64,000 bases of DNA from Candidatus Hecatella orcuttiae (lineage in GTDB: Archaea; Thermoproteota; Bathyarchaeia; Hecatellales; Hecatellaceae): the NCBI GenBank assembly GCA_002011035.2, contig MTLY02000002.1, positions 384,001-448,000 on the forward strand, written 5' to 3'. Below, piece after piece: positions 33,469-49,863 of the stretch; the stretch's first letter is position 1; each line of letters starts with the position of its first letter. The translations under genes were made by a program, and so were the position numbers. A model generated the notes under the pieces. It was not told the DNA's origin, ran no database searches, and was given only the letters and a program-made list of their open reading frames with translations.

Positions 33469-33601
33469 AAACTGGCACCCTCAGCAGTCTATTCTCACCA
33501 GCCTCTTATTATCTTTTATTTCAGCCTCCGCGCGGCTTAGTTTCACCTTCCTCTCAAGGCTATCTAGCGGAAGGACGCTAGAACTCTGAGGGGTCCCTTC
33601 C

Positions 33602-33811
33602 ATGCCTGTCCCCAAGGGCTACCCTGTGAGGATCACCCGGTGGAGCAGCACCAGCCGGGTGAAGAGAGGCCGGAAGAAATACTGGAAGCTCGTCTTGAAC
33701 TTCCCTCAGAAGATGGCCCCGGAGCTGGAGGACCTCTTGGGCAGGCCGGCTGTGGCTTGGAGGGAAGGCAGCAGGGTCATCATCCAATTTCAGCTAGCTG
33801 GGAACCCCTGA
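33602..33811 (+). CDS. Small basic protein, possible AbrB-like DNA-binding protein
   Basis: 69 aa; KRGRKKYWKLVLNFPQKMA pattern; first gene of the cluster. Confidence 0.45.
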   Translation: MPVPKGYPVRITRWSSTSRVKRGRKKYWKLVLNFPQKMAPELEDLLGRPAVAWREGSRVIIQFQLAGNP

Positions 33812-33958
33812 GGGAGAACACCCCGCCTCCACGCCTCCTTCCACACGTCCATGTAAATCCCCCTCATATCCTCACACCCCTCCCGTTTTCCCAAGGGGGC
33901 TTCTCGCTAGCGGAGGCAAATTCCCCCAGCCCCCGACTTCCCCACCCTTCACAGGGCT

Positions 33959-34332
33959 GTGTCGAAAACCCTAAAAGCCCACCCATGCCCTAGGGAGGTT
34001 GCTGAAAAGGGTCGGGTGCACCGGAAACCCAGCCGCTGGAACCCGCAGGCCTTGGGGCCGGCGGGGCATGGGGCGGCCTTCCGCCTAAGCCAGCTTCCTT
34101 TCTCACCCGGCCTTCAGGGTTTTCTCCGAGGTGACGGCTTCTGGGAAGTCATCGGAACCTCTACCTCCGCCACCTCCGCCGGGAGGCGGAGAGGCTGTTC
34201 AAGGAAGCCTACCACGACCGGGAGAAGGCGGAGCTGGTGGCCCTAGCCGACTACCCGCTGCTGGACATCCGGAGGGGGGAGGTGCTGCGAAACCCCCACT
34301 ACGTCAACCCCAGCCTGGAGCGCCTCCTCTGA
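33959..34332 (+). pseudogene. Probable frameshifted hypothetical gene
   Basis: ...GFLRGDGFWEVIG joins, by a one-base shift near 34155, a start-less protein-like frame NLYLRHLRREAERLFKEAYHD...NPSLERLL ending TGA at 34332. Confidence 0.45.
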
Positions 34333-35141
34333 CAGCCCGGCCCAAAGGCCGGTGGGGTCTCCCCCACAGGCTTTTCCAAGGCCCCGCCTACCAGGGCGCC
34401 GCCGGGCCCGTGGCTGTGGAGGCGGACGAGGAGAAGATAGCCCTCCGTCTTCAAGCCTACCGGCTCTGGCCCCAGCGGACGGTGGTGGACCTCTACGCGG
34501 GGAAGGGCTTCCTCAGCTGGCTCTACGCCCGGGAAGGCTGTGAGCGGCTCATCTGCGTGGAGAAGAACCCTGAATATTTTGCGGTGTTGAAGCGGAACTT
34601 GGCGGAGTTCGGTGAGAGGGTGAAGCTGGTCCGGGCGGACAACCTCCGATGGCTGGAGCGAGGTGGGCTGTCCCCCGAGGAGCCGGTGACCTTCGTGGAC
34701 TTCGACGCCTTCGGCATCCCCGCCCGGCTGCTGCAGCGGTTCTTCACCGTCCACCCCATTCGGAGGGCTTTGGTGATGGCGGTCACCGACGGGCTGCTGT
34801 TCAACTTCCGGCGGATGAGCAACGCTGACCTCCGTAGGCTTTACCTGCAGGATTTTTATTTGGGCGGCGAAGCCGGGCGGCCGCTGAGCATCCAAGACCT
34901 GGGGGAGTACGCTTTCCAGATCCAGCGGACGCTGCTGGACATCTTGGCCATGCGCCACGGAGCCCAAGCCTACCCTCTCTATTTCAAGGTGAACCGCCGC
35001 TGCACCGTCGCCTACTCCGCCTATTTGGTCCTGCCCAAATTCGTGGGCGCTGTGGACTTTAAGCGCTATGTAGGTTTGAGGAGGGTGAAGACGGGGAGTG
35101 CCGCAGTATCCTTCGAGGGAAGTCTTGGACAGGCTGGCTAG
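34329..35141 (+). CDS. Class I SAM-dependent methyltransferase
   Basis: VVDLYAGKG motif I, CVEKN, VDFDAFGIP. Start uncertain (CTG 34329 or GTG near 34410); the track N-terminus from 34131 looks spurious. Confidence 0.75.
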   Translation: MTARPKGRWGLPHRLFQGPAYQGAAGPVAVEADEEKIALRLQAYRLWPQRTVVDLYAGKGFLSWLYAREGCERLICVEKNPEYFAVLKRNLAEFGERVKLVRADNLRWLERGGLSPEEPVTFVDFDAFGIPARLLQRFFTVHPIRRALVMAVTDGLLFNFRRMSNADLRRLYLQDFYLGGEAGRPLSIQDLGEYAFQIQRTLLDILAMRHGAQAYPLYFKVNRRCTVAYSAYLVLPKFVGAVDFKRYVGLRRVKTGSAAVSFEGSLGQAG

Positions 35142-35496
35142 GCTTCAGCCGGACCACTACGTGGAGGTCACGTGGAGCGACGCCTGCGAGATGCGGGACG
35201 CGACTCCGGAGGACATCGAACGCGACTACCACACCACCATCCTGTGCTCAGGCCGGGTGTACGGGGTCCGAGGCGACTACCTCATCCTCGTCAGCGAGGA
35301 AACCTTCTACGGCTACCGGTTCCTCAGCATCCCCATCGGCGTCATCCAGAAGCTGCGCATCCTCACCCGGAAGCCGCGGAAGAGGCCCCTCCGCATCCTC
35401 AAGGCCGGAGTCGCCTACAAGGTGGTCTACGTCTATGTCAAGCCCGGGGAAAAGTCTCAGGTTGACGTTAAAGGACTTCGCCTTGTACGAGCATGA
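35098..35496 (+). CDS. Small beta-barrel (Sm-like) virus-type protein
   Basis: VEVTWSDA...CSGRV...YLIL...IPIGVIQKL pattern common in phage hypothetical proteins. Confidence 0.5.
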   Translation: MPQYPSREVLDRLARLQPDHYVEVTWSDACEMRDATPEDIERDYHTTILCSGRVYGVRGDYLILVSEETFYGYRFLSIPIGVIQKLRILTRKPRKRPLRILKAGVAYKVVYVYVKPGEKSQVDVKGLRLVRA

Positions 35497-36034
35497 CTGG
35501 AGGGGCATCATCGCCCTCACCCTCGTCGCAGGGTACATCCTCCTCCTCTGGGCTCAGGTTCCCGGCATCGAAGTCCTCTCCGTGGCCGTCGGCCTGGTGG
35601 TAGGCTGGTACTTCGGCCTCCAGCAGCACCCCCAGCCCCGGCCGTGGGCGGAGCCGTCGGTTCCCCTCAAGCTCCGGCGGGCGACGGTGAAACATCCGGC
35701 GTTCAAATCCATCAAAACCCGACTGGTCGAAGCCCTCCGGCAGACGGGCTGCTACGACCCTGCCTTCGACGATATGGTGGTCGACGAGGTTGTTAAGTCC
35801 ATCATCGACATCCGCACTGTTGACCGCTATGTGGAAGGCGCCAAAGACCTCCGGGAGCTCGCTGAGGCCTTCAACGCCAAGGCGACTATAACCCGAATAC
35901 TCTACCAAGCTGTGGAGCAACTGGCCGTAACTCGGCGAGGCCGGCTGAAGAGAAAAGACATGGAAGGCTTCAAGGACACTCTCTTCACCCGTCTCAGGGA
36001 GCTGACATCCGCATCCGAGAACAATGCGCGATAG
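35435..36034 (+). CDS. Two-TM holin-like domain fused to a terminase-small-subunit-like domain
   Basis: TM pair ending GWYFG; C-terminus LRQTGCYDPAFDDMVVD...EQLAVTRRGR resembles P27-type TerS; lies upstream of TerL. Confidence 0.55.
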   Translation: MSSPGKSLRLTLKDFALYEHDWRGIIALTLVAGYILLLWAQVPGIEVLSVAVGLVVGWYFGLQQHPQPRPWAEPSVPLKLRRATVKHPAFKSIKTRLVEALRQTGCYDPAFDDMVVDEVVKSIIDIRTVDRYVEGAKDLRELAEAFNAKATITRILYQAVEQLAVTRRGRLKRKDMEGFKDTLFTRLRELTSASENNAR

Positions 36035-36261
36035 TGGCATATGGTGGCATGGTTTTGGGCGGAAAGACGAGGGTTAATTTAACGCTCGACAGCCTTCTGG
36101 TCAAAGCCATCGACCAGGTTCGCGGCCCCATCAGCCGGAGCAGCTTTATTCAAGCGCTGATCGAGGAGGCTCTGAAGAGTGTTCCCCGTGAGCGTCGAAG
36201 AGGCTTGGCTAAGGGCGAGGAGAGATCCAAGCTTCTTCGCGGGGTGGCTGCTCAGGCTTAG
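36034..36261 (+). CDS. Ribbon-helix-helix (CopG-like) regulator
   Basis: KTRVNLTLDSLLVKAIDQVRGPISRSSFIQALIEEAL. Confidence 0.75.
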   Translation: MAYGGMVLGGKTRVNLTLDSLLVKAIDQVRGPISRSSFIQALIEEALKSVPRERRRGLAKGEERSKLLRGVAAQA

Positions 36262-37501
36262 GCCCACAGCCTACCAGGCCAGGTTCCTCACCGACATGAG
36301 CAAGCGGCAGGTGTTGAAGTGGAGCCGGCAGAGCGGAAAGTCCACCTGCCTCGCCGTCAAAGCCTTGTGGTTCGCCATCTTCCACCCTCAAACCACCACC
36401 CTTATCATCTCTCCGTCTCTCAGGCAGTCGATAAACTTGAGGGATATTGTCGCCGGCCTCGTCGAAAGGCTGCCCCAAGATGCCAGGAAGAACTTGGTGG
36501 AGAAAACCTTGAGAACGACCCTCTACCTCTGGCGGGGCAGCCGCATCCTCGCACTGCCCGCAAACCCAAACACGCTCCGCGGCTTCACGGCTCACATGGT
36601 CCTCGTCGATGAGGCGGATTTCTTCCAAAACCCTGAGGCCATCTTCTACGGCACCGTTTACCCCATGCTGACCACCACCGACGGCTGGCTGATAGTCAGC
36701 TCCACCCCATGGACCACCAAGGGCTTCTTCCACCGCATCTGCCAGCCCGGCAGCGGCTACACGCACCACTTCATCAACTGGCGCGACGCGGTGCAGGCGG
36801 GAGTGGCCCGGGAGGCGGTTATCCGCGAGGCCATGGAACGCAACCCGCCGGAGGTCTTCCGCAGGGAGTACGAGTGCGAGTTCGTGGAGGACGTCGACGT
36901 CTTCCTGCCCTCGGACCTCATCGCCCGCTGCATCGACTCGCAGCTGGAGTACACGCCCTTCGAGGCTGAAGCCCGGGGTGAGTTCTACGTGGGATGCGAC
37001 TTCGGCAAGCACCAGGACTACTCGGTGGTGGCCGTGGTGGAGAAAAAGGACGACGTGATTTCCCTAGTCCACCTTCACAGGTTTCCACTGGAGACCCCCT
37101 ACGCCTCGGTCATCGGCTACGTGAAAGCCCTGTGCGACCGGTGGCGCAGCGTCGCCGCGGTGCGCCCTGACATGACCGGGGTGGGCGACTTCATCGTGGA
37201 AGAAATGCAGCGGGCTGGAATCCCCAGCGTGGAAGGCGTCAAGTTCACCCGCGAAAGCAAAGAGGCCATAGCCGTGCCGGTGAAGCAGGCTATGATTTCA
37301 GGGCGTGTTCGCATCCCCTACGACCGGGACCTCATCGCTGAGCTCAACGTGGAACGCTATGAGATGTCGAAAGACGGCCACTATGTTTTCAGCCACCCCG
37401 AGCGAAGCCACGACGACCGCTTCTGGGCCTTCTGCCTCGCCGCCCACGCCGCCCTCGGCAGGGGCGAAGGAGGAGCCATCATAGGGGGTGTCCGTCGATG
37501 A
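36179..37501 (+). CDS. terL: Terminase large subunit
   Basis: Walker A SRQSGKST, Walker B VLVDEA, SSTP, nuclease GCDFGKHQDYS and HDDRFWA. Confidence 0.95.
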   Translation: MFPVSVEEAWLRARRDPSFFAGWLLRLRPTAYQARFLTDMSKRQVLKWSRQSGKSTCLAVKALWFAIFHPQTTTLIISPSLRQSINLRDIVAGLVERLPQDARKNLVEKTLRTTLYLWRGSRILALPANPNTLRGFTAHMVLVDEADFFQNPEAIFYGTVYPMLTTTDGWLIVSSTPWTTKGFFHRICQPGSGYTHHFINWRDAVQAGVAREAVIREAMERNPPEVFRREYECEFVEDVDVFLPSDLIARCIDSQLEYTPFEAEARGEFYVGCDFGKHQDYSVVAVVEKKDDVISLVHLHRFPLETPYASVIGYVKALCDRWRSVAAVRPDMTGVGDFIVEEMQRAGIPSVEGVKFTRESKEAIAVPVKQAMISGRVRIPYDRDLIAELNVERYEMSKDGHYVFSHPERSHDDRFWAFCLAAHAALGRGEGGAIIGGVRR

Positions 37502-38709
37502 CCCTGTGGGGAAAAATCAAAAACTGGTTCACCGCCAGCGAAGCCCAAGGCTTGGAGGAGAAAGCCCGAGGCCTCGTCGCCGGGGTCCCTTCCGTCTGGG
37601 GCCGAGGGCAGAAGGCACCCTTCAGCTTCCAAACCTGCTTCGAACGCTACGAGAACGTAGGCTTGGTCACCGCGGCTGTGGACGCTACAGCGGAGATGAT
37701 CGCAGGCCCAGGCTACCACACCGAGGGCGTCGGTGAAGCCAAGCGTGTGGTGGACGACTTCGCGGAGGAGGTCAACCTCGACGGCCTGCTCATGGACGCG
37801 GTGCTGGACTGCGCCATCTGCGGCAACTCGTGGGTGGAGAAGGTGGTGGAGGACGGCCTCATCGTCGGCCTCAACTACCTCGACCCACTGAGCATGGAGC
37901 AGAGCATCATCCTCAAGAAGGCCCCCGGAGGCTTCGACCTCTACCACAACCAGGTGGAAGGCTACGTGCAGACCGTCCGAGGCAGGAAGACAGCCCAGTG
38001 GCCTGCGGACCGCATCATCCACTTCACCTGGAACCGGCCCCGCGGCAGCCTCTACGGCACAGGCATGGTGAAGCCTGTGGAAGCCTACCTGCAGACCATC
38101 CTCGAAGCCGAGCAGGACATGGGCAAGATCATCAAACGCTACGCCGCCCCCAAGGTGGCTTGGATGCTGCAGGACGCGGGGAAGACGGTTTTCGACGAGG
38201 TGAAGCGGCAGCTCCGCACCGTGCAGCCGGACGAGGACTACGTCATCGCCACCACCGGGAAGACGAGAATCGACGCCCAAGTCATCCAGATTGACCCCCG
38301 CAGCCGCTTCGAGTACTTCTTCAACCACATCACCAACGCCATCATGGCCGGGTTGGAGTGCCCCATCACCTTCCTCTTCCGCGGCGACGTGAGGGTCTCA
38401 GACGCCTCCGCCACGGCCATGCTTCAAGCCTTCGACCGGAAAATCCGCATGAAGCAGCGCCGGTTCAAACGCATCATCGAAGCCCAGCTTTTCCGCCCGC
38501 TGGTCCGGCAGCACGGCCACAGCGAAGTCCCCCGCCTGGTCTGGGGACCTGTGGAGGTGGAGACCTTGGAGGACAAGCTCAAGAAGTGGACGGAGCTGCT
38601 TTCCAGCCGCCTCAGCCTCAGGGATGAAACCCGCCGCGCCCTCGAGGATGAAATGATGAAAGACCTAGGCCTTCAGTCTACCGCAGAAGAGAGGAGTGAA
38701 GATGCCTAA
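37498..38709 (+). CDS. Portal protein
   Basis: Position after TerL, 403 aa, ICGNSWVE, IIHFTWN...YGTG, IEAQLFRPL. Confidence 0.88.
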   Translation: MTLWGKIKNWFTASEAQGLEEKARGLVAGVPSVWGRGQKAPFSFQTCFERYENVGLVTAAVDATAEMIAGPGYHTEGVGEAKRVVDDFAEEVNLDGLLMDAVLDCAICGNSWVEKVVEDGLIVGLNYLDPLSMEQSIILKKAPGGFDLYHNQVEGYVQTVRGRKTAQWPADRIIHFTWNRPRGSLYGTGMVKPVEAYLQTILEAEQDMGKIIKRYAAPKVAWMLQDAGKTVFDEVKRQLRTVQPDEDYVIATTGKTRIDAQVIQIDPRSRFEYFFNHITNAIMAGLECPITFLFRGDVRVSDASATAMLQAFDRKIRMKQRRFKRIIEAQLFRPLVRQHGHSEVPRLVWGPVEVETLEDKLKKWTELLSSRLSLRDETRRALEDEMMKDLGLQSTAEERSEDA

Positions 38710-39448
38710 GCATCCTGACTTCGAAAAAATCCACCGCGACTTCCTAAGCCGCTACGGAGCCGAGGAGGGGGAAAGACGCTACTACGCCTGGCTCCGCAGC
38801 CGCAGCCTCGACGACACCCAGCCCTTGGGCTCCCAGCGCGCTAAGCTGGAGGAAGGCACCGCCTTCCAGTGGGCTAACACCCTCGACTGGGTGGGGCAGC
38901 CCAACCGCATCCGAGGCCTCGCCCTCACCCCCGGCTCCAGCCTCAACCGCAACCTCTACCCGGAGGAGGAGCTGGCCAAGGCAGCCAGAACGCTGGCGGG
39001 GAAACCCATCTACGTCAACCACCTCCACACCGGGACAGCTGTCCCCGGGCAGGCTCAGCCGCAGGTAGGCCGGGTGCTGGACGCGGAGTACATCCCCGGC
39101 CGAGGCATCGAATACGTGGGCGCCGTCGAAGACCCCGCTGTTTGGAGGCTCATCCGAAGCGGCCTGATCACAAAGGTGAGCGTGGCGGGAAGATGCCGCT
39201 CCGCCCTCCCCGTCGACGGGGTGAAGCCGGAGGGGCTCATGTTCGAGGAGCTGAGCCTCCTCTGGGGGGAGGAACAGCCCGGTGTCCCCGGCGCCTACGT
39301 CCAAGTTTGGGAAAAGCTCAGCCCCAGGGGAAGGGCGAAGCCGCTGGGCCTAGGCCTCCGGGAAGGCCCTGAACCCGCGCAGCCGCCCACTCCAGACCTT
39401 TGGGGGGCTAGGCTGAGGGACGTGCTGCCTTCCAAGGCAAGGCGGTGA
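38696..39448 (+). CDS. Prohead maturation protease
   Basis: SLNRNLYPEEEL...GKPIYVNH...VGRV...VSVAG...FEELSL...PG, assemblin/HK97-like protease pattern. Confidence 0.8.
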   Translation: MKMPKHPDFEKIHRDFLSRYGAEEGERRYYAWLRSRSLDDTQPLGSQRAKLEEGTAFQWANTLDWVGQPNRIRGLALTPGSSLNRNLYPEEELAKAARTLAGKPIYVNHLHTGTAVPGQAQPQVGRVLDAEYIPGRGIEYVGAVEDPAVWRLIRSGLITKVSVAGRCRSALPVDGVKPEGLMFEELSLLWGEEQPGVPGAYVQVWEKLSPRGRAKPLGLGLREGPEPAQPPTPDLWGARLRDVLPSKARR

Positions 39449-39467
39449 AGCTGATTTTTCACGGTCA

Positions 39468-39540
39468 CAGCCATGACGGCAGCCCAGCCGCGTCGGTTGG
39501 GCCTACGCCGGAGCTTGACGGCTGAGGGGGATACTCCCCT
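39468..39540 (+). ncRNA. Candidate structured intergenic RNA element
   Basis: Nested pairings CAGCC/GGCTG, CGGC/GCCG, GCCCAGCCG/CGGTTGGGC, plus hairpin AGGGGG-ATAC-TCCCCT. Confidence 0.4.
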
Positions 39541-39579
39541 GCCTTAGTGTGGGAGAGCAAAAGTTTGGGAGAAAGAAAC

Positions 39580-39987
39580 ATGACCAGTCAAGGCGACGTG
39601 TACACCCTAGGCATCGTGCTAGACCTCAGAGCCGGAGGAGCCATCGCCAAAGGAGAACCTGTCAAAACCGGCGCCGCCGACGGCAAGGTTGTCGCAGCCT
39701 CCGACGGAGACGACCCCGTAGGCGTGGCCCTGAAGGCCGCCAGCGCCGACGGAGACCCCGTGCCCGTCATGGTTTCCGGAGCCGTCTACCTGACGGCCGC
39801 CGCGGCCATCAGCCGGGGGGAAGCCGTTCAGCCGGCGGGGTCCCAGAAGGTGAAAGCCCTCGCCGACCAGCCGGTGGACGAAGGAGGCACCGCCACCTAC
39901 ACTGTCTACTACCAGAAGAAGCTGGGCATCGCCTTGGAAGCCGCTTCCGCGGACGGAGACGTCATCCTCGTCCAGCTGGCCCTCTAA
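39580..39987 (+). CDS. Capsid decoration/cement protein (DUF2190-like)
   Basis: Gly/Ala-rich AGGAIAKGEPV...VGVALKAASADGDPVPV...GIALEAASADGDVILV with internal repeat; directly before MCP. Confidence 0.75.
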   Translation: MTSQGDVYTLGIVLDLRAGGAIAKGEPVKTGAADGKVVAASDGDDPVGVALKAASADGDPVPVMVSGAVYLTAAAAISRGEAVQPAGSQKVKALADQPVDEGGTATYTVYYQKKLGIALEAASADGDVILVQLAL

Positions 39988-40001
39988 GGCGGTGAAGCGC
40001 C

Positions 40002-40991
40002 GTGCAGAAGATTCTAGAAACAGGAGTTAAGGTGGCTAAGGAAGACATGGCTGTTCGAAGGCTGGAGGAAAAACTTCAGACTCCCCTGCTTTCAGGGCGG
40101 ACCCTCCACGAAGCCCAGCGGGTCCTCCACCAGCGCACCGAAGCCATGCTTAAAGACCGACATCTCCGCGAGGTCCTCCTAAGCGACCAGTCGCAGGCCA
40201 CGGCCAAGGTTCTGGACATCGTCTGGGAGGCGGCCAAGCCCCGGCTCATCGGCCGGGAGCTCTGCGCGGTCTTCGTCAAGGAAGACCCGTCCCTGAAGGT
40301 GCCCCGGCATAAGACCTTGGTCTCAGCCCGCTACCCGGTGGCGGAGGGCGCTGACATCCCTGTGAACGTGGGAGCTTTCGACTCGGTGACCCTGACCCCT
40401 GAAAAGTCCGGGGTAGCCGTGCCCATCAGCCGGGAGATGATCGAAGACGCCGCGTGGGATGTCGTGGAGTTCCAGCTCCGCGAAGCCGGCCGAGCCATGG
40501 CCGAGGTGGAAACAGAGCGGATCATCGCCCAGATGATCGCTGACGCAGGGAACTCCGCGGCTGCAGCCACAGCTGGGACGCTGGCCTACGACGACATCGT
40601 GGGCATGATCAACCTCATCCAAGCCGACAACTTCCTCCAAGACTACATCCAAACCGGCCGAGGCTACTTGGTGGTGCACCCCGACCAGTACGCCGACCTC
40701 CTCAAGGACTCCAGCGTGAAGCAGGCTCACTCTTGGGGCGGCATCGCCGTGGCGCCCACAGGCCGCTTGGAGACCATCTTAGGCCTCAACCTCCGGGTGA
40801 CCACCAAGATCACCAGCGGCACCGCCCTGGTCGTCGACGCGGAGCACGCGGGAGCTCTGTTTATCCGAAGGGACATCACCGTGGAAAACTACGAAGACCC
40901 GATTAAGGACCTGGCCGGAGCCGTGCTGACAGCCCGGTGGAAGTACGCGACGATGCAGGCGAACGCCATAGGCAAGATCACAGGAGCCTAA
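40002..40991 (+). CDS. Major capsid protein, HK97 fold
   Basis: VAEGADIP, KSGVAVPISREMIEDAAWDVV, LVVHP, ILGLNLRVT; 329 aa. Confidence 0.92.
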   Translation: MQKILETGVKVAKEDMAVRRLEEKLQTPLLSGRTLHEAQRVLHQRTEAMLKDRHLREVLLSDQSQATAKVLDIVWEAAKPRLIGRELCAVFVKEDPSLKVPRHKTLVSARYPVAEGADIPVNVGAFDSVTLTPEKSGVAVPISREMIEDAAWDVVEFQLREAGRAMAEVETERIIAQMIADAGNSAAAATAGTLAYDDIVGMINLIQADNFLQDYIQTGRGYLVVHPDQYADLLKDSSVKQAHSWGGIAVAPTGRLETILGLNLRVTTKITSGTALVVDAEHAGALFIRRDITVENYEDPIKDLAGAVLTARWKYATMQANAIGKITGA

Positions 40992-41044
40992 GCCTAAACC
41001 ACCCGTTTTCTTCCGGCGGTTCTTTTCCCGTGAAAAAGCAACCG

Positions 41045-41056
41045 CCCCTTTTTTTA
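41045..41056 (+). terminator. Oligo-T terminator after the capsid gene
   Basis: CCCCTTTTTTT about 55 nt after the MCP stop. Confidence 0.5.
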
Positions 41057-41083
41057 TCGCTTCCAAAAATCACGTGAGTTAGG

Positions 41084-41356
41084 TTGAAGGTTAAAACCGG
41101 CGTCTGCCCCCGGTGTGGAACCCGCTACTACCAGCGAGGCGACCGCCTTTACATCTGCGACTGCATGCTCACCAAGCCCGACGGGTCCCTCATGGCCGCC
41201 TACGACCCCGCCGTCGACAGCCTCAGCTACGGCTCTAGGGCTATGCAGAAAATCCGAAACCCTGAGGACCGGAGTCGGAGAAGTTGGAGGGTTCACTTCT
41301 GGGACGGCGGCGAGAAGAACGAAGAAAACCGCCCGGTGGAGGTGAAGATGAAATGA
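41084..41356 (+). CDS. Small Cys-rich (CxxC...CxC) protein
   Basis: CPRCG...CDC; 90 aa. Confidence 0.5.
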   Translation: MKVKTGVCPRCGTRYYQRGDRLYICDCMLTKPDGSLMAAYDPAVDSLSYGSRAMQKIRNPEDRSRRSWRVHFWDGGEKNEENRPVEVKMK

Positions 41357-41421
41357 CCTCCCCGAGGGAAAAAATCTTTAAGCACAACCCGCGGATATAT
41401 TACCCAGCCGGGTGAAAAATT

Positions 41422-41490
41422 CTGGCTAAGAAAAAAGCTAAGAAAACCAAGGCTAAAGGCTCCGCTAAATCCAAAGGCAGAAAGTGCTAG
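41422..41490 (+). CDS. 22-aa lysine-rich micropeptide with CTG start
   Basis: TATA-like GAAAAAATCTTTAAG, SD GGTGA, CTG, MAKKKAKKTKAKGSAKSKGRKC, T-tract at 41519-41530. Confidence 0.6.
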   Translation: MAKKKAKKTKAKGSAKSKGRKC

Positions 41491-41553
41491 CCGGACCGCC
41501 TTCAACCTCCCTCCCCTATTTTTTTTCTTTCCCCGTCCACTCGAGGTGAACTC

Positions 41554-41871
41554 ATGGGCTATTCAACTCTGAACGCTGTCAAAGAGCGCTTGGGCATCGA
41601 CCCAGCGGACACCACCCAGGACACGGTGCTGACCAACAAGATCGCCGCGGCGGACGCCATCATCGACAACGTCCTCCAAGCCTACACGGACGTACCTCTG
41701 GCTTCGCCGCCTCAGCTCATCCAAGACATCAGCGCCGACCTAGCCGCAGCGCTCTACCGCGAAGACCGAGGCCCCCCGGAGGCCGGCGGCGCATTCCGCC
41801 AGCGGGCTGAGAAGGCTTTGGAAGCCTACATCACCCAAACCTACCGCCAAGTAGGATTCGAAAAAACTTAG
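41554..41871 (+). CDS. Head-tail adaptor (gp6/gp15-like)
   Basis: YSTLNAVKERLGI...DTVLTNKIAAADAIID...PQLI; SD GAGGTGA. Confidence 0.8.
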   Translation: MGYSTLNAVKERLGIDPADTTQDTVLTNKIAAADAIIDNVLQAYTDVPLASPPQLIQDISADLAAALYREDRGPPEAGGAFRQRAEKALEAYITQTYRQVGFEKT

Positions 41872-41888
41872 ACGGCTGAAGGCTGAAG

Positions 41889-42317
41889 ATGGCCACCGTC
41901 AAGGTTGATGCCTCCGCAGCCCGCCGCCTGCTGGAGGCCTTGAAAGAACACTCCGACAGGGTTCAGGCTGAGTTTCTCCGGCAAGGCGCCCGGCTGACGG
42001 TGGAGGAGATGAAGCGGAAGGCTCCCGTGCGAACAGGCGCCCTGAGGCGGTCGATAGGCGTCAGGGCGGTGGAGGGAGGTAGGGTTGCCGTCAGCCCCGC
42101 GGTGCCCTACTGGCACGCGGTGGAACGAGGAGCCAAGCCGCGGGTAATTCTCCCCAAGCGGGGGAAGGTTCTTGCCTTTGAAGTCGACGGCCGGCCGGTG
42201 TTCGCCCGCCGGGCCCGGTGGCCAGGGTTTCCGGGGCGTTTCTTCGTCAGGGCGACGGAGCAGGCTGTGAGACCCAAGCTCCGGCAGCTGCTACTCCAGT
42301 TGATGAAGAAGCGTTGA
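41889..42317 (+). CDS. HK97 gp10-like neck/tail-completion protein
   Basis: APVRTGALRRSI...YWHAVERG...PG..GRFFVR. Confidence 0.85.
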   Translation: MATVKVDASAARRLLEALKEHSDRVQAEFLRQGARLTVEEMKRKAPVRTGALRRSIGVRAVEGGRVAVSPAVPYWHAVERGAKPRVILPKRGKVLAFEVDGRPVFARRARWPGFPGRFFVRATEQAVRPKLRQLLLQLMKKR

Positions 42318-42392
42318 CATCTTCCGCATGGTCGGATGAAAATTTCCTTTCGAACATACTAAACAGTTCTTTTCCAGTGGACGGGAGACATC

Positions 42393-42813
42393 ATGTACAA
42401 GGAGATTGTGCAGAAAATCATCGACCTGCTGAAGGCGGACGCCGCCCTCTCGGAGCCGGCTAAGGTGAAAAAGTATTACTTCGGCATCCCCCCCGGAGGC
42501 GAAGGCCGGCTACCCGTGGGTCAGCGTCCGCTGGGCGGGGGGTCCCGTCGAAACCGAGACAGCCCGGAAGGAGCGGTACCAGATGGATTTTGAGATCAGG
42601 GTGGTGGACCAGTCCTACCGGGAGGACACGGCGGAGAAGTCGGTGATGGACCTGGTGGAGGACATCGACCGGGTGCTGGACGCTAACCCCACGCTGGACG
42701 GGCTGGTGGACGACTGCCGCATCGTCAACATCGCCTCAGAGACCATGGCCTCAGGCTCCTACGCCCTAGTGGGCGCCCTCATCACCCTCACGGCTAGGAA
42801 AACACAGCTCTAA
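42393..42813 (+). pseudogene. Tail terminator-like gene split by a one-base frameshift in a C7 run
   Basis: MYKEIVQKIIDLLKAD...YYFGIPP continues as EAKAGYPWVSVRW...MDFEIRVVD...NPTLDGLV if the C-run at 42488-42494 is 6 rather than 7. Confidence 0.7.
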
Positions 42814-42832
42814 AAGGAGGTGAAACAGGCAA

Positions 42833-43759
42833 ATGGCTGAAAGATACATAGTAGTAGGCGAAGAAACCACCTTCGGCTCGCCGGTGACCCCTGACAAGTA
42901 CATCGACATCCGCCGGGAGGCTGTGGTTTTCGACGTCGGCGTCATCCCCGTCGAAACCGTGTACAGCCGGGACACCCGCAAATACGTGTTCGGCAAGGCC
43001 CTAGCCCGAGGGCCCATCGACTTTGCCGTGGAGCCGGAGAACGTGGCCCACCTGTTCAAGTGGGCGCTGGGCAGTGTGACTACCAGCGGGGCAGGACCCT
43101 ACACCCACGACTTCACCCCGGCGGACACCGTGAAAAGCTTCACCGCCATCATCAACCCGGAGCAGGAGACCTACGGCTTCTTCCGAAAACTCAGCGGCTG
43201 CCTGGTGGAGCGGCTGACCCTCGAATCCGCCCTCGACGTGCTCACCGGCTCCGTGGAAATCGTGGCAGCAAAGGAAGAAAAAGACACAGCCTTCACTCCG
43301 TCGGTTTCCCTCTCCCCGCTGGCGCCCTTCGTCTTCCACGAAGCCACCCTGACACTGGGCGGTGCCGACAAGTCCAGCGTCCTCAAAGCCTTCAGGCTGA
43401 CGGTAGGCAACAACCTGCCCGTCGACGACATGTACGCCCACGGCGACAAGCATCTACGCCGCATCCTCGTGGGCCGGCGGGAGGTGGAGGTGCAGATGGA
43501 GCTGGCCTTCGAGGACTCCGCGGACTACGACCGCCTGCTGGCGGGGACGGAGGTGGCGGCTTCCCTCAGCTTCGTCAAGACCGCGGGCAGCGCTGAGCTG
43601 CTCATCGACCTCCCCCGCATGGTCTACCACAGCGACGTGGCGCCGCACATCGCGGGAAGGGACCCCTTCACCGTCGTGGCCCCCTGCCAAGTGCTCTACG
43701 ACTCCGCCGCCGGCTATGAGGTGAAGATTCAGGTCAAAAACAACGTGGCCGGCTACTGA
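42833..43759 (+). CDS. Major tail tube protein
   Basis: GEETTFGS, YTHDFTP, KSFTA, GCLVERLTL; position between neck and chaperone; no sheath gene. Confidence 0.82.
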   Translation: MAERYIVVGEETTFGSPVTPDKYIDIRREAVVFDVGVIPVETVYSRDTRKYVFGKALARGPIDFAVEPENVAHLFKWALGSVTTSGAGPYTHDFTPADTVKSFTAIINPEQETYGFFRKLSGCLVERLTLESALDVLTGSVEIVAAKEEKDTAFTPSVSLSPLAPFVFHEATLTLGGADKSSVLKAFRLTVGNNLPVDDMYAHGDKHLRRILVGRREVEVQMELAFEDSADYDRLLAGTEVAASLSFVKTAGSAELLIDLPRMVYHSDVAPHIAGRDPFTVVAPCQVLYDSAAGYEVKIQVKNNVAGY

Positions 43760-43786
43760 CCGCCAAGAGTTTTCAGGTGAACGGAC

Positions 43787-44381
43787 ATGTCTGCGGAGAC
43801 GCCTGCAAGAAGGCTCAGTGTGAAGGAATGGCGGGAAAGCCTAGTCCGCACGGTGGAGGCGCCCAGCGGGCTGACCTACCAAGTCCGCCTGCTGACCTCG
43901 CCCCTCCCCTTCCTGAGGCTTCTCCGAAAGCACGGCTTAGAAGGCGTGGGGGAAGCTCAGGCGGAAAGCTTGGATGTGGCTGAGAAGTCCGACGCCCTGC
44001 TGAGGGACCTCTTCGCCGAATACGTCCTAAACCCCAAGGTGGCGGAGGGCGGGGGAGCTGAAGGCGAAGAACGCTTGGCTTTCTCGGAGATGCTGGAGGA
44101 GGACAAGGCAGTCCTCTTCAACGCCATAGCCGAGAAGTTCCGTTTTCTTCGCAGCGAAGACAGCCAGCCCCCTCACCCCAGCCCTGCTGGGGGAAGCTCT
44201 CCTCCTCCTAGGCGGGCTGCTGGGGGAAGCCTACCACCGCCTCCCCAGCCGGGTTCTCGCCCTCCCAGCCGAGGAGCTGGCTCTCAACTGGACCTGCCTC
44301 CAAGAGGCTAAGAGGGCCTTGGCCCAAGCCTCCAGCCTCAGCGCTGAGATCCGTCGACGCCGGGGGGAGCTGGGCCTCTAG
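43787..44381 (+). CDS. Tail assembly chaperone G (43787-44311) with a probable +1 frameshift GT product ending 44381
   Basis: TTT-C at 44144-44147; the +1 frame is open to TAG 44381 and is protein-like (GEAYHRLPSRVLALPAEELALNW). Confidence 0.7.
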
Positions 44382-44391
44382 CAGGTGGACG

Positions 44392-44637
44392 GTGGAGGAT
44401 GTGAAGCTTCGAACCGGCTTGGGAGCCGTCTTATGGGCGGTGGGCGTGGGGCTCATGGCGGAGAAGCTGCTTCGCTACGGGGCTCTCTACACCTATCCTC
44501 CCCACCTCTTGGACCACGGCCTCTACGGCCTCATTTTGGTCGCCTTATCCCTGCTCCTGCTGTCCAAGCAGGAGAAGCCGGTCCGGGGTGGGGCTCTCCG
44601 AAGGCCGGAGGACGGAGTAACCGCGGCCGGAGGCTAG
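44392..44637 (+). CDS. Small two-TM membrane protein (holin-like or accessory)
   Basis: Two hydrophobic segments around PPHLLDHGLYG. Confidence 0.55.
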   Translation: MEDVKLRTGLGAVLWAVGVGLMAEKLLRYGALYTYPPHLLDHGLYGLILVALSLLLLSKQEKPVRGGALRRPEDGVTAAGG

Positions 44638-44786
44638 GTTTTCAAGTCTGGAAACCAGATGGCGTAGCTTCCGCACTTCCAGCAGCGGCTGCCGGTGACG
44701 ACGAACAGGCGGCCGCCTTTGATTTCAACCTTGGTGTCTCCTGGTATTTCCCTGACCTCCCCGCAGGAGGCGCATTTGACCTTCAT
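44634..44786 (-). CDS. 50-aa zinc-ribbon protein, antisense within the tail region
   Basis: SD GGAGG, ATG; MKVKCASCGEV...SRCWKCGSYAIWFPDLKT; below the ORF track cutoff. Confidence 0.7.
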   Translation of the reverse strand: MKVKCASCGEVREIPGDTKVEIKGGRLFVVTGSRCWKCGSYAIWFPDLKT

Positions 44787-44850
44787 GGCCTCCCCTAAAA
44801 TGATTCGCGAAACTCAGCCCTTTAACTCTTTCAGCAACCCCGGTCCTTGG

Positions 44851-44997
44851 GTGGTGAAGACGGCCGCGGAGCAGATAGGTGACATTCTGAAAAACGCCAG
44901 GGACCTAGGCTACAGGCTGCTGGTCATCCAAACCCGCAGCCGGCTGTTCGCTGTCCCCCTCAAATCCATCCGAGAGGTTAGGCTGGTGAAAAAATGA
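44851..44997 (+). CDS. Small hypothetical protein coupled to the tape measure gene
   Basis: GTG start; MVKTAAEQIGDILKNARDLGYRLLVIQ...; ATGA overlap with TMP. Confidence 0.5.
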   Translation: MVKTAAEQIGDILKNARDLGYRLLVIQTRSRLFAVPLKSIREVRLVKK

Positions 44998-46340
44998 GCG
45001 CAGAGCAAGCCCGCGTCGCCATCATCCTCGAAGCCCAGAACAAGGCCAAAGCCGTCCTAGCCGAAGCCCAACGGGACGTGCGCAGCTTCAGCCAGCAGGC
45101 ACAGGCCTCAGCTCGAGGCGCCGGCCAAGCAGCCGACCGCATGGGCCAACGCATGGCCGCGGCCGCCCGCACCAGCCAAGTCAGCTTCAGCCAAGTCTCC
45201 ATGGGCATGACCACGCTGGCCGCCAGCGCCATGAACCTCTACAACGCCTACGACCGCATCGGCACCGTGCAAGCCCGGGTGGCCGCCCTCCAAGCCAGCT
45301 ACAAGGCGGCTCAGGACGCTGTGGCCGCCGCCCAGCTGAGGCTGAACAAGCTGGCTGAGGCGGGAAAAGAAGGCAGCGAGGAATACCGCATCGCCCAGGA
45401 GAAACTGGCCACCGCCCAGCAGCGCCTCGCCGCCTACGAGGTGAACAAAGCCTACATTCAGATGGCCATGTCGGTGCTGCCGGCGGTGATGGGCAGCATG
45501 CAGGCGCTGCAGGGCATGAAGGGCATGGGCGGCCTGGTCTCCGTCGCCCCCAAGGTGGTGGCGGCCATGCACAGCATCCGCACCGCCTCCTACGGAATGC
45601 TCGGCCCCTTAGGGCTGCTGATCGCCGCTGCTGCGACCCTCTACCTGGCGTGGACCCAGAACTGGGGTGGGATCCGCGAAAAGGTCGGCGCGGTGGTGGA
45701 GTGGTTCAGCAGCGTCTACACCCACTACATTCAGCCGACGTTGGAGGCGATTGTGGGTGGTTTCCAGTGGCTGGCGGACAGGGTGACGTGGCTTTGGGAC
45801 CGCACCCTCGGCCCCATCGTGGAAGGCGCCAAGAGGCTCTACGACGCCTTGGTTGGACGGTCCGTCTTCCCTGAGCTCATGCACCGTCTCGAAGCCGTCA
45901 CCGCCAAGGGGCTGGGGGAAACCGTGGCCCTCTGGCATTTCGCCTCCCACCGCATCGCCGCCTACACCCAGGCCATCTTGGCCAAGATGACCGTGTCCCA
46001 GAAGGCAGCTAGGTTCTTCGCTGAAACCGCTGTGGCTCCGGCCTTGGCTCGGGGAGGCTTCGCCGGGGTCACATCCCGCGGCCAAATCCTAGCCGCCAGC
46101 ATCCCTCGGGCTGAGTATCTCCGGGGCTTGGAGGAAAGCCTCCGCGTCAGCCGGGAGGTCTACGGCTACGGCCCTGAGCATCCTGCGGTGCGGCGCTATG
46201 AGGCCGCCATCGCCGAGGTCAGAGGCATCACCATCATCATGAACAACCAAATTCAAAGCCCCGCCGACGAGGTCCGCCTTGCCAAGCGGGTGGGCGTGGC
46301 GGTGGTGGACGCTGCAACCCTCAGGAAGGGACCCCTCTAA
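44994..46340 (+). CDS. Short tape measure protein
   Basis: Ala/Gln-rich helical N-terminus, LYLAWTQNWGGIRE and Trp-spaced repeats; position after the chaperone. Confidence 0.85.
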   Translation: MSAEQARVAIILEAQNKAKAVLAEAQRDVRSFSQQAQASARGAGQAADRMGQRMAAAARTSQVSFSQVSMGMTTLAASAMNLYNAYDRIGTVQARVAALQASYKAAQDAVAAAQLRLNKLAEAGKEGSEEYRIAQEKLATAQQRLAAYEVNKAYIQMAMSVLPAVMGSMQALQGMKGMGGLVSVAPKVVAAMHSIRTASYGMLGPLGLLIAAAATLYLAWTQNWGGIREKVGAVVEWFSSVYTHYIQPTLEAIVGGFQWLADRVTWLWDRTLGPIVEGAKRLYDALVGRSVFPELMHRLEAVTAKGLGETVALWHFASHRIAAYTQAILAKMTVSQKAARFFAETAVAPALARGGFAGVTSRGQILAASIPRAEYLRGLEESLRVSREVYGYGPEHPAVRRYEAAIAEVRGITIIMNNQIQSPADEVRLAKRVGVAVVDAATLRKGPL

Positions 46341-48173
46341 ATGGCCCGATTCACCGTCAAGATAGCCGGCGTGGACTACCCGTTCACAGCCCTGACCCTC
46401 CGCCAGTCGGTTGACCCCCCTGACGAGTTCACCGTGGAGCTGCCCAAGGTGGAGGCAGCGCCGGCCTTCGAAGACCCCGTGGACATCTACAGGGACGGGG
46501 TGAAAATCTTCAGCGGCCTCCTGGAACGCCGGCAGGCGGTGTTCGGGGAGGAAGGCGAGAGGCTGGTCCTAGGGTCTAGGGACCTCAGCCAGAAGCTGTT
46601 CCGCCACCTCACCGGCGCGCAGACGTGGACTGAGACCAAAGTCCGCACCATCCTCCAAGACCTCATCGCCGGCACAGGCCTGACCGAGGGGGCGATCGCC
46701 GACCCCTTCCAAGTGTGGCACCGGTGGCTTCAGACCACGGACGCAGACTTCGGCGGCGACGTCCTGACGGATGTGGAGGTTGCTGGGACGGGGACGGCGG
46801 CTAAAGTCGTGCTAACCTACGCGGGTGCAACCAAGACAGGAAACATCAAGTCGACGTTGATAGCGCCTGTAAACTGGCAAAGTTGGATTGAATTTAATGC
46901 TGCTGTGGATGAAAAAAACCAAACCATCACCTTCGACATCTTGGATTCGGCGGACAACACGCTTGTAGGCGGCATCACACCAGCTCAGCTGCCCTACGAC
47001 CTATCCGCCCTAGCAGAGTCATCCCTAAAGGTCAGATGCAACCTGACGGCAGCCCCTTGGGTTGATGGAACCGCCCTAGAAAGCAGCACGGGTGTCATTT
47101 ACGCATCATATCCTCGGCGAGGCCAGAAGATTACTGTGCCCAACAAAACCCTCCACACAATAATTTTCGCCATCCACAAGGAAGGCAGCCCCACCGGTAC
47201 GGCGTATCTGAGGATAAGAAGAACCTCAGACGATTCGATTATCTACGAGGAAAGCTTCGACGTTGCCTCTCTTCCTACCGATTCTGGGAATTGGCAGGTT
47301 TTCAAACTCACTAATCCTCCTACCGTCAACGAAGAAGTTAGAATTATGGTTGAATATTATGGCGGCTCCACTGACAACTGGATCAGGATGAGACGTTACA
47401 GAAACTCCTACGGGGAAAACTGGGAAGGCGTCGAAACAAGCTACGATGGAACAGCCTACACGGACGACAGCACCGCCGACAGCAACATCGTCATCCACGA
47501 CAAACCCAGCCCCGAACTCCTAGAATGGTCCGTCACCCACCACAGCGACTACACCGACTTCACCGTGGACTACGAATACCGGTTTGAAGCCGTCAACCGG
47601 CTGGCCGCCATGCTGGGAGCCGAATGGTGGGTGGACTCCGCGGGAGCCCTCCACTTCCAACCCCAAAGGGGCTCCGACCTTTCTGGGACGGTGCGCTACC
47701 AAGCGGAGCGGGATGTAACCGTCTCCCGGGTTACGGAAACCTTCCAGCTGGCCAACCGTATCACCGTCATCGGAGCCGGGGAAGCTGCCAGCCGGGTGGA
47801 GGAGACGGAGGAAGACCCGGCTAGCCAGGCAGCCTATGGGCTGCATGAAGCCGTCTACGTGGACAAGGAAATCGACACCGCGGACGCAGCTAGGACCACG
47901 GCTCAGAACCTCCTAGCCAAGTACAAGGACCCCGTGGAGAAGATCGTCCTCCAAGTCCTCCCCGTCTACGACTTCCAAGTAGGCGACATCATCACCGTCA
48001 CCGACCCCCACACCGGGCTGGAGGGCAGCTACCGGGTGAAGGTCAAGACCATCAGGTTCACAGCCGAAGAAGGGGAGCAGTGGGAGCTGGAGCTGGCCAC
48101 CCGCCTCACCGACCTCCCCGACGAACTGCTCAAGACAGGCCAGCTGCAACGCTGGCTCAAGGGGTTAGCCTGA
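46341..48173 (+). CDS. Tail-tip hub (Tal/gp27-like) protein with inserted beta-sandwich domains
   Basis: IYRDGVKIFSG...GSRDL; EWWVDSAGALHF; NRITVIGAG...SQAAYGLHE; FQVGDIITV. Confidence 0.78.
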   Translation: MARFTVKIAGVDYPFTALTLRQSVDPPDEFTVELPKVEAAPAFEDPVDIYRDGVKIFSGLLERRQAVFGEEGERLVLGSRDLSQKLFRHLTGAQTWTETKVRTILQDLIAGTGLTEGAIADPFQVWHRWLQTTDADFGGDVLTDVEVAGTGTAAKVVLTYAGATKTGNIKSTLIAPVNWQSWIEFNAAVDEKNQTITFDILDSADNTLVGGITPAQLPYDLSALAESSLKVRCNLTAAPWVDGTALESSTGVIYASYPRRGQKITVPNKTLHTIIFAIHKEGSPTGTAYLRIRRTSDDSIIYEESFDVASLPTDSGNWQVFKLTNPPTVNEEVRIMVEYYGGSTDNWIRMRRYRNSYGENWEGVETSYDGTAYTDDSTADSNIVIHDKPSPELLEWSVTHHSDYTDFTVDYEYRFEAVNRLAAMLGAEWWVDSAGALHFQPQRGSDLSGTVRYQAERDVTVSRVTETFQLANRITVIGAGEAASRVEETEEDPASQAAYGLHEAVYVDKEIDTADAARTTAQNLLAKYKDPVEKIVLQVLPVYDFQVGDIITVTDPHTGLEGSYRVKVKTIRFTAEEGEQWELELATRLTDLPDELLKTGQLQRWLKGLA

Positions 48174-48174
48174 G

Positions 48175-48390
48175 TTGAAGCTCCGCAATCCCCGCAGCCG
48201 CCCCTACCAAGTCACCGTCCGAGGCCGAAGGTGGGTGATCCCGGCTAAGGCGGTGGTGGAGGTCCCCGACAGGCTGGCGGAGGCCATCCTCGCCACCCGG
48301 GCCTCCCGCTTTCTCCAGCAGGAGAACCCCCCTGTCTCCGACCTCCAAGAGGAGGTAAGGAGGATCAAGGCCTACCTGAGGTTGAGGTAG
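48175..48390 (+). CDS. Small hypothetical tail-region protein
   Basis: 71 aa, tightly packed between tail genes; C-terminal short coiled coil. Confidence 0.55.
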   Translation: MKLRNPRSRPYQVTVRGRRWVIPAKAVVEVPDRLAEAILATRASRFLQQENPPVSDLQEEVRRIKAYLRLR

Positions 48391-48391
48391 C

Positions 48392-49846
48392 ATGACGGCT
48401 CCCAAGGTCAAAATCGGCATGGACAGCAACACCCTCGACCTGCTGGCCGCGGGCAACGTCCACCGCCTAACCCGCCATCCGCTGAAGACCTTCAGCCGCC
48501 GGAAGGTGGCCGGAGGCGAAGTGCACCTGCCCAGCCTAGGCCCCGCTGAAACCCTTCACATCCTCGAAGGCTGGCTGGACGGGTCGGAGGCGCAGGCCAA
48601 CCTCCAGAAGCTGCTAAACCTCTACCACAGCCAAGAGCTCACCGCCTTGGAGACGGCGAAATACGAGGCCTTCGGCAAGCTTACGGACTTGGAGATTCCC
48701 TACCAAGGCGGAGAGACCGCCGTCCGCTACCGCCTCGAACTCACCGAGCTGCCGGCTTGGGGCCGCACAGCGGTCAACCAGGGCACCGACGCCTACTTGG
48801 CTGACTTAGACTACGCGGCTCTGCGCAGCCAGCTGTTCAGCCCCCTCTGGGCCCGGCATGGATGGAGCTGGGACCGCGGCGGGAAGAAGTTCGCCTACGA
48901 ATTCATCCTCGTCAACGCCCTCGAGGAAACCTCACCTGCGGTTCTCTACGACGACGATGAGGCGTTTTGGTCGACGACGGGATGGGGCTCAGGCTCCAGC
49001 GCTGCCTCCCTGACCGAGGAGTCAACCGTTGTGAAGAAGGGAACTTCGTCAGCCAAAGTCTCCCAGACATCCGGCTCCTACGATGTGTTCGGAATCTACC
49101 ACAGCTGGGCCGCAGGGCAGGACTGGTCTGGCTACGAGTTCGTCGCCCTCTGGCTTTACGGCTCCAACAGCGGCGGAAAGATGGCCCTAGACATTAGGGC
49201 GCCTGATGCCTCCAACAAATACTTCGCTTACATCGACGACACTTGGACGGGGTGGAAGCGGCTGGTTTACCCGTTGAGAGCTATGCCGAAAGTCGGGTCG
49301 CCGGATTTGACAAACGTCAAAGCCGTCTATCTCACCACCGACGAGGGCAACCCATGGGCTCCCTTCTACCTCGACCGCATGGTGCTGGACGTGGGCCAGT
49401 GGGTTGCGGTGGAGGTCTTCGTCCCTGACACGCTAAACACGGCCGATATTAATGTGCGCCTGTATTCATGGGATGGGTCCGGCTGGGTCGTCGGCCCCGG
49501 GGTGGAAGCCACAGACCTGAGCCCTTGGTCTGCCGGCGTAGACCTGTACTTCCTCGACGGCACAAAGGCGAGCGAAGCCTACGGAGGCAACTGGTACAAC
49601 GACCAATTCGCCTACTACTCTCTAGGGGAGAGAGGCCAAACCCCCGGCAAATGGTCTTCACCGCCGCCAGACATCACCTACTCCCTCAACTACGGCTGCC
49701 TGAAACGCCTAGGCTTCGCCGTCAAAATGCCCCCCAGCACGCTGGCCCGCGACACCAGCGGCAGCCAAGCCGTCAACAAAACCCAGCTCAAGCTGGAAAT
49801 CACCTACAACTCAGAGCACACCACCTACGTCGACGGAAGCCTCTAG
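48392..49846 (+). CDS. Distal-tail-like N-terminal domain plus carbohydrate-binding-like domain (candidate adhesin)
   Basis: N-terminal ~120 aa Dit-like pattern (LEGWL...LQKLLNL...RYRLELTE); DWSGYEFVALWLYG...WTGWKRLVYP CBM-like jelly roll. Confidence 0.6.
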   Translation: MTAPKVKIGMDSNTLDLLAAGNVHRLTRHPLKTFSRRKVAGGEVHLPSLGPAETLHILEGWLDGSEAQANLQKLLNLYHSQELTALETAKYEAFGKLTDLEIPYQGGETAVRYRLELTELPAWGRTAVNQGTDAYLADLDYAALRSQLFSPLWARHGWSWDRGGKKFAYEFILVNALEETSPAVLYDDDEAFWSTTGWGSGSSAASLTEESTVVKKGTSSAKVSQTSGSYDVFGIYHSWAAGQDWSGYEFVALWLYGSNSGGKMALDIRAPDASNKYFAYIDDTWTGWKRLVYPLRAMPKVGSPDLTNVKAVYLTTDEGNPWAPFYLDRMVLDVGQWVAVEVFVPDTLNTADINVRLYSWDGSGWVVGPGVEATDLSPWSAGVDLYFLDGTKASEAYGGNWYNDQFAYYSLGERGQTPGKWSSPPPDITYSLNYGCLKRLGFAVKMPPSTLARDTSGSQAVNKTQLKLEITYNSEHTTYVDGSL

Positions 49847-49863
49847 CCCCTCCGGGGACAGCG

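Follow-up and report, generated by a model that had tools for sequence, protein, structure and literature searches.

Can a small terminase (TerS), the packaging partner of the large subunit TerL, be anchored in a membrane? The question is raised by a gene in the window (the whole stretch of 64,000 nucleotides that was analysed), whose host is a Bathyarchaeia archaeon, as its homologues are named; PolD- and KaiC-like genes lie in the same window. The initial annotation read the gene as a holin-like membrane domain fused to a TerS-like domain. Characterised small terminases are soluble, and in the available part of a review of small-terminase families the word 'membrane' is absent (PMC9611059). 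No report of a fusion of TerS to a membrane domain or holin was found in the literature searched, mostly titles and abstracts, with subscription papers thinly covered. Each part of this protein belongs to a known kind, and what is new is their combination.

Architecture and inheritance of the fusion gene

The gene, its subdivisions and its neighbours are listed in Table 1. Its 199-aa product comprises two predicted membrane helices, a linker and a four-helix domain. AlphaFold, supplied with an alignment of 35 sequences, placed helices at residues 22–40, 46–62, 90–103, 109–135, 139–168 and 173–197, with coil between the second and third, at a mean pLDDT of 83. The pair of transmembrane (TM) helices ending in GWYFG (residues 57–61), as first described, is supported by this model and by Kyte-Doolittle hydropathy over 17 residues, which peaks at 2.3 for helix 1 and at 1.8 for the Gly-rich helix 2; G53, G57 and Y59 are invariant in all 12 hairpin sequences. 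The other two motifs singled out at the outset are LRQTGCYDPAFDD (residues 101–113) and EQLAVTRRGR (161–170). The hairpin has basic residues on either side of it and a short, near-neutral loop between its helices, so that the positive-inside rule predicts both of its ends to be cytoplasmic. The linker is Pro-rich, as had been reported, in this genome only; in the other five fused genomes it is rich in Lys and Arg and variable in length. Similarly, the gene does lie upstream of terL, but not directly, a ribbon-helix-helix (RHH)-like ORF being interposed.

The start codon, ATG 35435, falls 62 bp inside the upstream gene. It is plausible because an ATG is found at the equivalent place in four of the five fused relatives; in the fifth (G053) the frame continues from the upstream gene. 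TTG 35483 was discarded in favour of this conserved ATG. No internal start codon or slippery site is common to the six fused linkers, and the production of two proteins through an internal start or a frameshift was rejected on these grounds.

Table 1. Features of the fusion gene and of the cluster around it (positions in the window)
Feature	Position	Strand	Basis
Small conserved ORF, first of the cluster; identity to its G047 homologue 60%	34141..34332	+	comparison
SAM-dependent methyltransferase-like gene, conserved part from about 34340	34131..35141	+	family searches
132-aa conserved ORF with W.DA motif, no family match; usual upstream neighbour of the 2-TM gene	35098..35496	+	comparison
Fusion gene, membrane hairpin and probable small terminase, 199 aa	35435..36034	+	ORF, homologues, AlphaFold
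Basic N-terminal tail, residues 1–21, which overlaps the upstream gene at its 3' end; cytoplasmic by prediction	35435..35497	+	conserved ATG (4/5); low pLDDT
Predicted transmembrane helix 1, residues 22–40, beginning at a DWRG motif	35498..35554	+	hydropathy, AlphaFold
Predicted transmembrane helix 2, residues 46–62, small-xxx-small S49/G53/G57/G61, ending in GWYFG	35570..35620	+	conservation, AlphaFold
Flexible linker, rich in Pro here and in Lys/Arg in relatives	35621..35683	+	comparison of six linkers
Four-helix TerS-like domain	35684..36031	+	AlphaFold, structural scan, conserved residues
RHH/Arc-like 75-aa ORF between fusion gene and terL	36034..36261	+	phrog_4738, E 1e-4; also before terL in G053
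Terminase large subunit	36179..37501	+	PF03237 and PF17289, phrog_2
Rest of head-tail genes: portal, protease (scaffold part shortened), cement, HK97-type capsid, connectors	37498..49846	+	family searches
Rest of head-tail genes, continued: tail terminator (frameshifted), tube, chaperone, 448-aa tape measure, two tail genes	37498..49846	+	

Several observations bear on whether the join is genuine. Logan contigs from runs X1 and X4, both possibly the source of this DNA, contain positions 34000–38000 in one piece with 0 differences, and a contig from another study (X6) crosses the hairpin–linker–domain junction (34898–35741), again with 0 differences. This support for the junction comes from assembled contigs and not from the raw reads that the initial annotation had named. 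Among 401 genomes of the class, 21 match the fusion query; one of these matches, with four stops (G279), was left out of the counts that follow. Five others (G011, G029, G047, G053 and G074), all of the same family, match over residues 3–178 at 45–48% identity, and 14 match the C-terminal half only. A profile search of the family's 14 genomes, incomplete ones included, found the C-terminal domain in eight, fused in six (four genera) and unfused in two, which answers the further point of whether the fusion is conserved. The fused C-terminal domains form one clade (support 0.97), with 45–51% identity between genera. Three pairs give a dN/dS of 0.15, 0.28 and 0.29 for the hairpin; for the TerS half two pairs give 0.08 and 0.11 (the third is saturated), values similar to TerL (0.11) and capsid (0.09). 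Both halves are under purifying selection, and no fused genome holds a close soluble second copy of the domain. An assembly error or a recent stop loss is rejected by the spanning contigs, the fused relatives and the dN/dS values.

The gene is therefore one open frame in six genomes of a single Bathyarchaeia family, and its halves are separate in related cassettes. Since relatives carry the hairpin as a gene of its own in the same cassette, the fusion joined neighbouring genes; it need not be adaptive, because adjacent, overlapping genes readily fuse. In G053 the W.DA ORF also runs in frame into the fusion gene, giving a 301-aa triple fusion (L004:1093-1998), and an insertion separates the fused gene from terL. 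Given this run-together gene and insertion, together with a frameshift and a shortened gene in the present cluster, some copies may be decaying.

The C-terminal half and its choice of DNA

The C-terminal half has no TerS match in Pfam or NCBIfam, nothing relevant in a PDB sequence search and no usable match in the ESM Atlas. A search restricted to proteins of 62–244 aa gave 152 relatives; among the 120 listed, nearly all are stand-alone proteins of about 134 aa. Unfused homologues are encoded just before terL at 10 of 14 loci, two of the others being at contig ends and two having no terL within the flank. Three of the six fused genes directly precede terL, two are separated from it by an RHH gene or an insertion, and one locus is split across contigs. 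Of 108 members, 23 have the TerS family phrog_361 as their top PHROG, at a best E of 3e-4, and the next family accounts for 5. When the AlphaFold model of this half (pLDDT 86) was used in a structural scan, HK97 TerS (8pop_A) ranked third of 48,161 chains, with a Z of 8.1 that alone is within noise (values below about 13 are common for helical bundles, and ranks 1 and 2 are unrelated proteins) and an rmsd of 2.8 over 85 aligned residues; the full model placed it at rank 6 (Z 7.5, rmsd 2.7, 84 aligned). Foldseek returned nothing at E ≤ 0.001 from PDB or BFVD, a TerS fragment appearing only at BFVD rank 32, and a second structure search (VIA) had no TerS among the matches listed. The hhalign probability with HK97 gp1 is a weak 1.3, and this alignment, which pairs YDPAFD with WTPAD, runs in about the same register as the structural match.

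HK97 gp1 (PDB 8POP), which we take to be a P27-type TerS, resembles the fusion protein in the short helix and long helical hairpin that superpose in the prediction, in having no helix-turn-helix (HTH) at the N-terminus, in basic segments before and after the core, and in gene position before terL. It differs in lacking the two predicted N-terminal membrane helices, in host domain (archaeal here) and in the TerL partner, which is of Terminase_6 type here; structural identity is 7%. Within the family, none of 108 sequences departs from D112, L163 or R167 and one departs from R170, and K79, K86, R167, R168 and R170 are conserved around the core. All six fused sequences retain L163, R167, R168 and R170. 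Every one of the 102 unfused sequences has Lys at position 151, against none of the six fused ones, which also show changes at D87 and D147; from the alignment, the loss of K151 possibly marks a change or loss of function. The six sequences without K151 form a single clade, and the net charge of the fused domain is more basic, not less. The idea that this clade had lost a basic channel was not upheld, net charge at the assumed lumen positions being similar. Elsewhere in the same genome, a 198-aa ORF (G000:C1:410559-411155) encodes a distant soluble paralogue, which matches the TerS-like family at E 3e-6, has a Cys-rich N-terminus and is without a neighbouring terL. In three other genomes (G090, G098 and G010; loci L043, L060 and L174), TerL itself is apparently split into ATPase and nuclease ORFs.

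Because position before terL, size, helical-hairpin fold, phrog_361 enrichment and the HK97 TerS match agree, the C-terminal half is probably an HK97/P27-like TerS, and the original TerS-like assignment is supported. The alternative, another helical protein that happens to precede terL, could appeal to the absent curated match, to the weak fold scores and to an unrelated family that occupies the same position in other loci (see below); the concurrence of those five lines makes it highly improbable.

The initial annotation also proposed that the missing HTH removes sequence specificity. This does not follow. The unfused relatives of about 134 aa likewise have no HTH, so the fusion removed no domain and the absence is family-wide; the basic segments appear to be kept in the present protein. 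In the accessible portion of a preprint, HK97 TerS is described as having no defined DNA-binding domain and yet binding cos specifically, through a basic N-terminal arm and a C-terminal helix (bioRxiv 10.1101/2023.07.17.549218), whereas TerS of the gene transfer agent (GTA) RcGTA, also without HTH, binds DNA non-specifically according to the excerpted text of another report (PMC6854486). By analogy with these two proteins, specific and random DNA choice would both be compatible with an HTH-less TerS, and the fusion does not settle between them. Some family members from genus g80 have tandem RHH domains, either fused or encoded just upstream; here the RHH gene follows the fusion.

The hairpin and its stand-alone relatives

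With two TM helices and a basic C-terminal flank, the hairpin is within the form of holins (1–4 TM helices and a basic cytoplasmic C-terminus). It shares a small size, a Gly-rich second helix and the basic flank with two-TM holins and pinholins, among which S21 has a Gly zipper. Its stand-alone homologues are 65–80 aa long. One of them, on a bacterial phage contig (L061), directly follows an M23 peptidase gene (E 1e-4 among candidates), and in five Bathyarchaeia cassettes (G130, G022, G114, G010 and G264) C1, transglutaminase-like or aspartyl proteases are encoded near the hairpin gene. The fused protein differs from known holins in that no Pfam or NCBIfam holin family matches the hairpin, in its union with a predicted ring protein, and in that no protease gene was seen in the module of any of the six fused cassettes. 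The hairpin has no match in annotated phages; its best PHROG is phrog_13256, of unknown function (6 of 15 members), and a single member of the 15 reaches the holin family phrog_4237, at E 0.047. The holin-like label is suggested weakly, by gene context beside peptidases in homologues. That the TerS is membrane-tethered, as also proposed, follows from the predicted hairpin and its basic flanks, at the level of a model. To our knowledge the host has no murein. At loci L165, L171, L173, L167, L174 and L261, papain-like, transglutaminase-like or aspartyl proteases are encoded beside small 2-TM genes upstream of the terminase; these are candidate exit cassettes of a holin and an S-layer protease in archaea without murein.

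Small 2-TM genes are recurrent neighbours of terL. Of 16 hand-picked TerL loci, 13 were informative. In eight of these a small 2-TM ORF lies no more than three ORFs upstream of terL, and in seven of the eight it comes right after the W.DA ORF, which we take to be 'Sm-like'; seven further loci outside the 13 also have a small 2-TM ORF upstream of terL. The common stand-alone 2-TM family aligns with the fused hairpin at an hhalign probability of 92.5 over 26 columns, and six of its 11 members outscore all 220 shuffles, while one reversed sequence scores 13.8. Homology between them is probable on these scores, not certain. In G313, G356, G050 and G081 the 2-TM cassette follows tail genes, and it therefore moves as a unit with TerS-TerL. 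At five loci (L267:4620-6089, L270:8028-9503, L272, L273 and L262), a fusion of about 490 aa between an ABC-ATPase and a GNAT domain is encoded between the 2-TM gene and TerS/TerL, in the place of the methyltransferase-like gene of the present clade; it is possibly a DNA-modification module.

In a single sequence, P0005, the hairpin recurs (55% identity), joined there to an unrelated domain. Unfused matches to that domain number 16, and in all 14 loci fetched they precede terL. This family shows no link to the first TerS-like family and no TerS PHROG, so that it counts as TerS by position only. P0005 is apparently a second, separate hairpin fusion; its own contig is 1,196 bp, and searches of metagenome and genome contigs did not recover its locus.

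The cluster, rival readings and the proposed role

The fusion gene belongs to a structure-only head-tail cluster of about 16 kb (about 34.1–49.8 kb; 33600–49850). Two of its genes look damaged: a +1 frameshift near 42490, inside a poly-C run, splits the tail terminator (42393–42813), and similarity is lost near 39330 in the protease-scaffold gene (38696–39448). Decay, phase variation or assembly error may account for this. Related clusters occur at different sites in G005, G011, G029 and G053; some are interrupted by host-like genes (DUF362, radical SAM, DNA methylase) with core genes intact. The best TerL relatives in IMG/VR are only 22–27% identical, in an exact-peptide search that is a weak one, and P0013 has no IMG/VR relative. 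Compared by description only, the 'Fuxiviridae' and 'Kunpengviridae', tailed viruses of Bathyarchaeia, share an HK97-type capsid, portal, TerL, tail tube and stand-alone methyltransferase; they differ in genome size, which is larger (32 kb for Fuxivirus), and in carrying CRISPR, Cas4 or genes for replication and an integrase, and the portion of the report available names no small terminase or holin (PMC10848311). KaiC-like ATPase genes with a small partner or MEDS gene lie near the cluster in G000 (the present genome; 31064–33468), G005 and G010 (loci L024 and L175), a proximity that may be due to chance because KaiC is multi-copy in these genomes. ARAGORN reports a tRNA-Pyl-like gene with a CTA anticodon (G000:C1:349861-349931), which may be spurious.

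A provirus-derived and possibly partly domesticated cluster fits these features best. It could be argued instead that it is a GTA kept by the host, in which the tethered TerS would load particles, at the membrane, with random chromosomal DNA while its hairpins act as a pinholin-like release pore. The cluster of G000 holds structural genes only, with no replication gene found; there is no PF00589 integrase on this contig (four are on other contigs), no tRNA within the window and no exact repeat of at least 14 nt in the flanks. Inspection of the G011 flanks by eye agrees with this picture. GC3 is similar to that of the nearby host genes PolD and KaiC, the tape measure is 448 aa long, and element genes group congeneric hosts in three of three pairs, as PolD does. 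RcGTA gp1 and the predicted GTA small terminases, including Mvol_0412 of Methanococcus voltae, are likewise short, all-helical and HTH-less products of structure-only clusters, although theirs directly precede terL and no membrane domain is mentioned for them in the available part of the report (PMC6854486); the likeness is one of description. GTA nature is thus possible. A fixed chromosomal site with vertical inheritance was not found, however, despite the congeneric grouping: flanking genes differ among G000, G005, G011, G047 and G053, and the capsid, tube and portal modules have been swapped (the capsid is 78% identical between G000 and G011 and 35–38% to genus g5), which makes the cluster a mosaic. 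Only eight of the family's genomes have the domain, this copy is frameshifted, a related cluster in G010 ends near an integrase-like gene, and an integrase lies about 6 kb upstream in G053. TerL homologues occur in 173 of the 401 class genomes, often in several copies, as expected of ordinary proviruses. We therefore regard the GTA reading as doubtful, and give the same low credence to its fullest form, in which TerS is a membrane ring that loads host DNA, the same ring pre-assembles a pinholin-like pore, and such coupling of packaging to release arose at least twice in Bathyarchaeia.

Somewhat less doubtful, though still unlikely, is a tolerated polyprotein: a holin-like gene and terS joined by stop loss, with the halves acting independently or the linker being cut, and a tether without any role in packaging. 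The abutting or overlapping genes of relatives, the variability of the linker, and the hairpin standing alone after a peptidase gene or near protease genes would all suit such an origin. It is harder to reconcile with a fusion that has persisted across four genera without reverting, with linkers that share no internal start or slippery site, with fused cassettes in which no protease gene is seen, and with the apparently separate fusion in P0005, itself one sequence whose genomic setting was not found. Much less likely than either is a disarmed or defensive relic, whose anchor sequesters TerS/TerL and so keeps related viruses from being packaged, or else no more than a provirus gene in decay. 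The loss of the otherwise invariant K151, the changes at D87 and D147 in the fused clade, and the frameshifts and insertions in the clusters of G000, G053 and G029 are what such a relic might show. Persistence outside complete clusters has a parallel in genus g80 (L025, L028, L029, L032, L033 and L039), where cassettes of RHH-RHH, TerS and TerL, several copies per genome, have no portal or capsid match within the 20–40 kb or so fetched and are possibly an orphan terminase module. Against decay, the genes next to the fusion that encode TerL, portal, capsid and tube are undamaged and experience the same purifying selection, and the four conserved residues from L163 to R170 persist in every fused copy.

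The reading that we favour, with moderate confidence, is that the fusion is genuine and inherited, that it joined two adjacent genes of a packaging cassette of viral origin, and that its product is likely a TerS, predicted to be anchored in the membrane and to face the cytoplasm. The helical-hairpin core and the basic C-terminal RRxR segment would form a ring that binds DNA through its basic arm and tail and recruits TerL. The membrane hairpin would hold this ring at the membrane, where packaging would start. The ring would also gather the Gly-zipper helices (S49/G53/G57/G61) into a cluster, which may later aid release.

How assembly is coupled to exit in head-tailed archaeal viruses is unresolved, and no archaeal holin has been tested in vivo, according to the available part of a review (PMC4456609). 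With the fused TerS, this coupling could be examined in one protein. The probable TerS family and the recurring 2-TM cassette gene have both been overlooked by annotation in Bathyarchaeia, and the cluster adds a candidate GTA-like element from a lineage abundant in sediments. If the proposed reading is true, a conserved membrane-anchored TerS would put genome packaging at the archaeal membrane.
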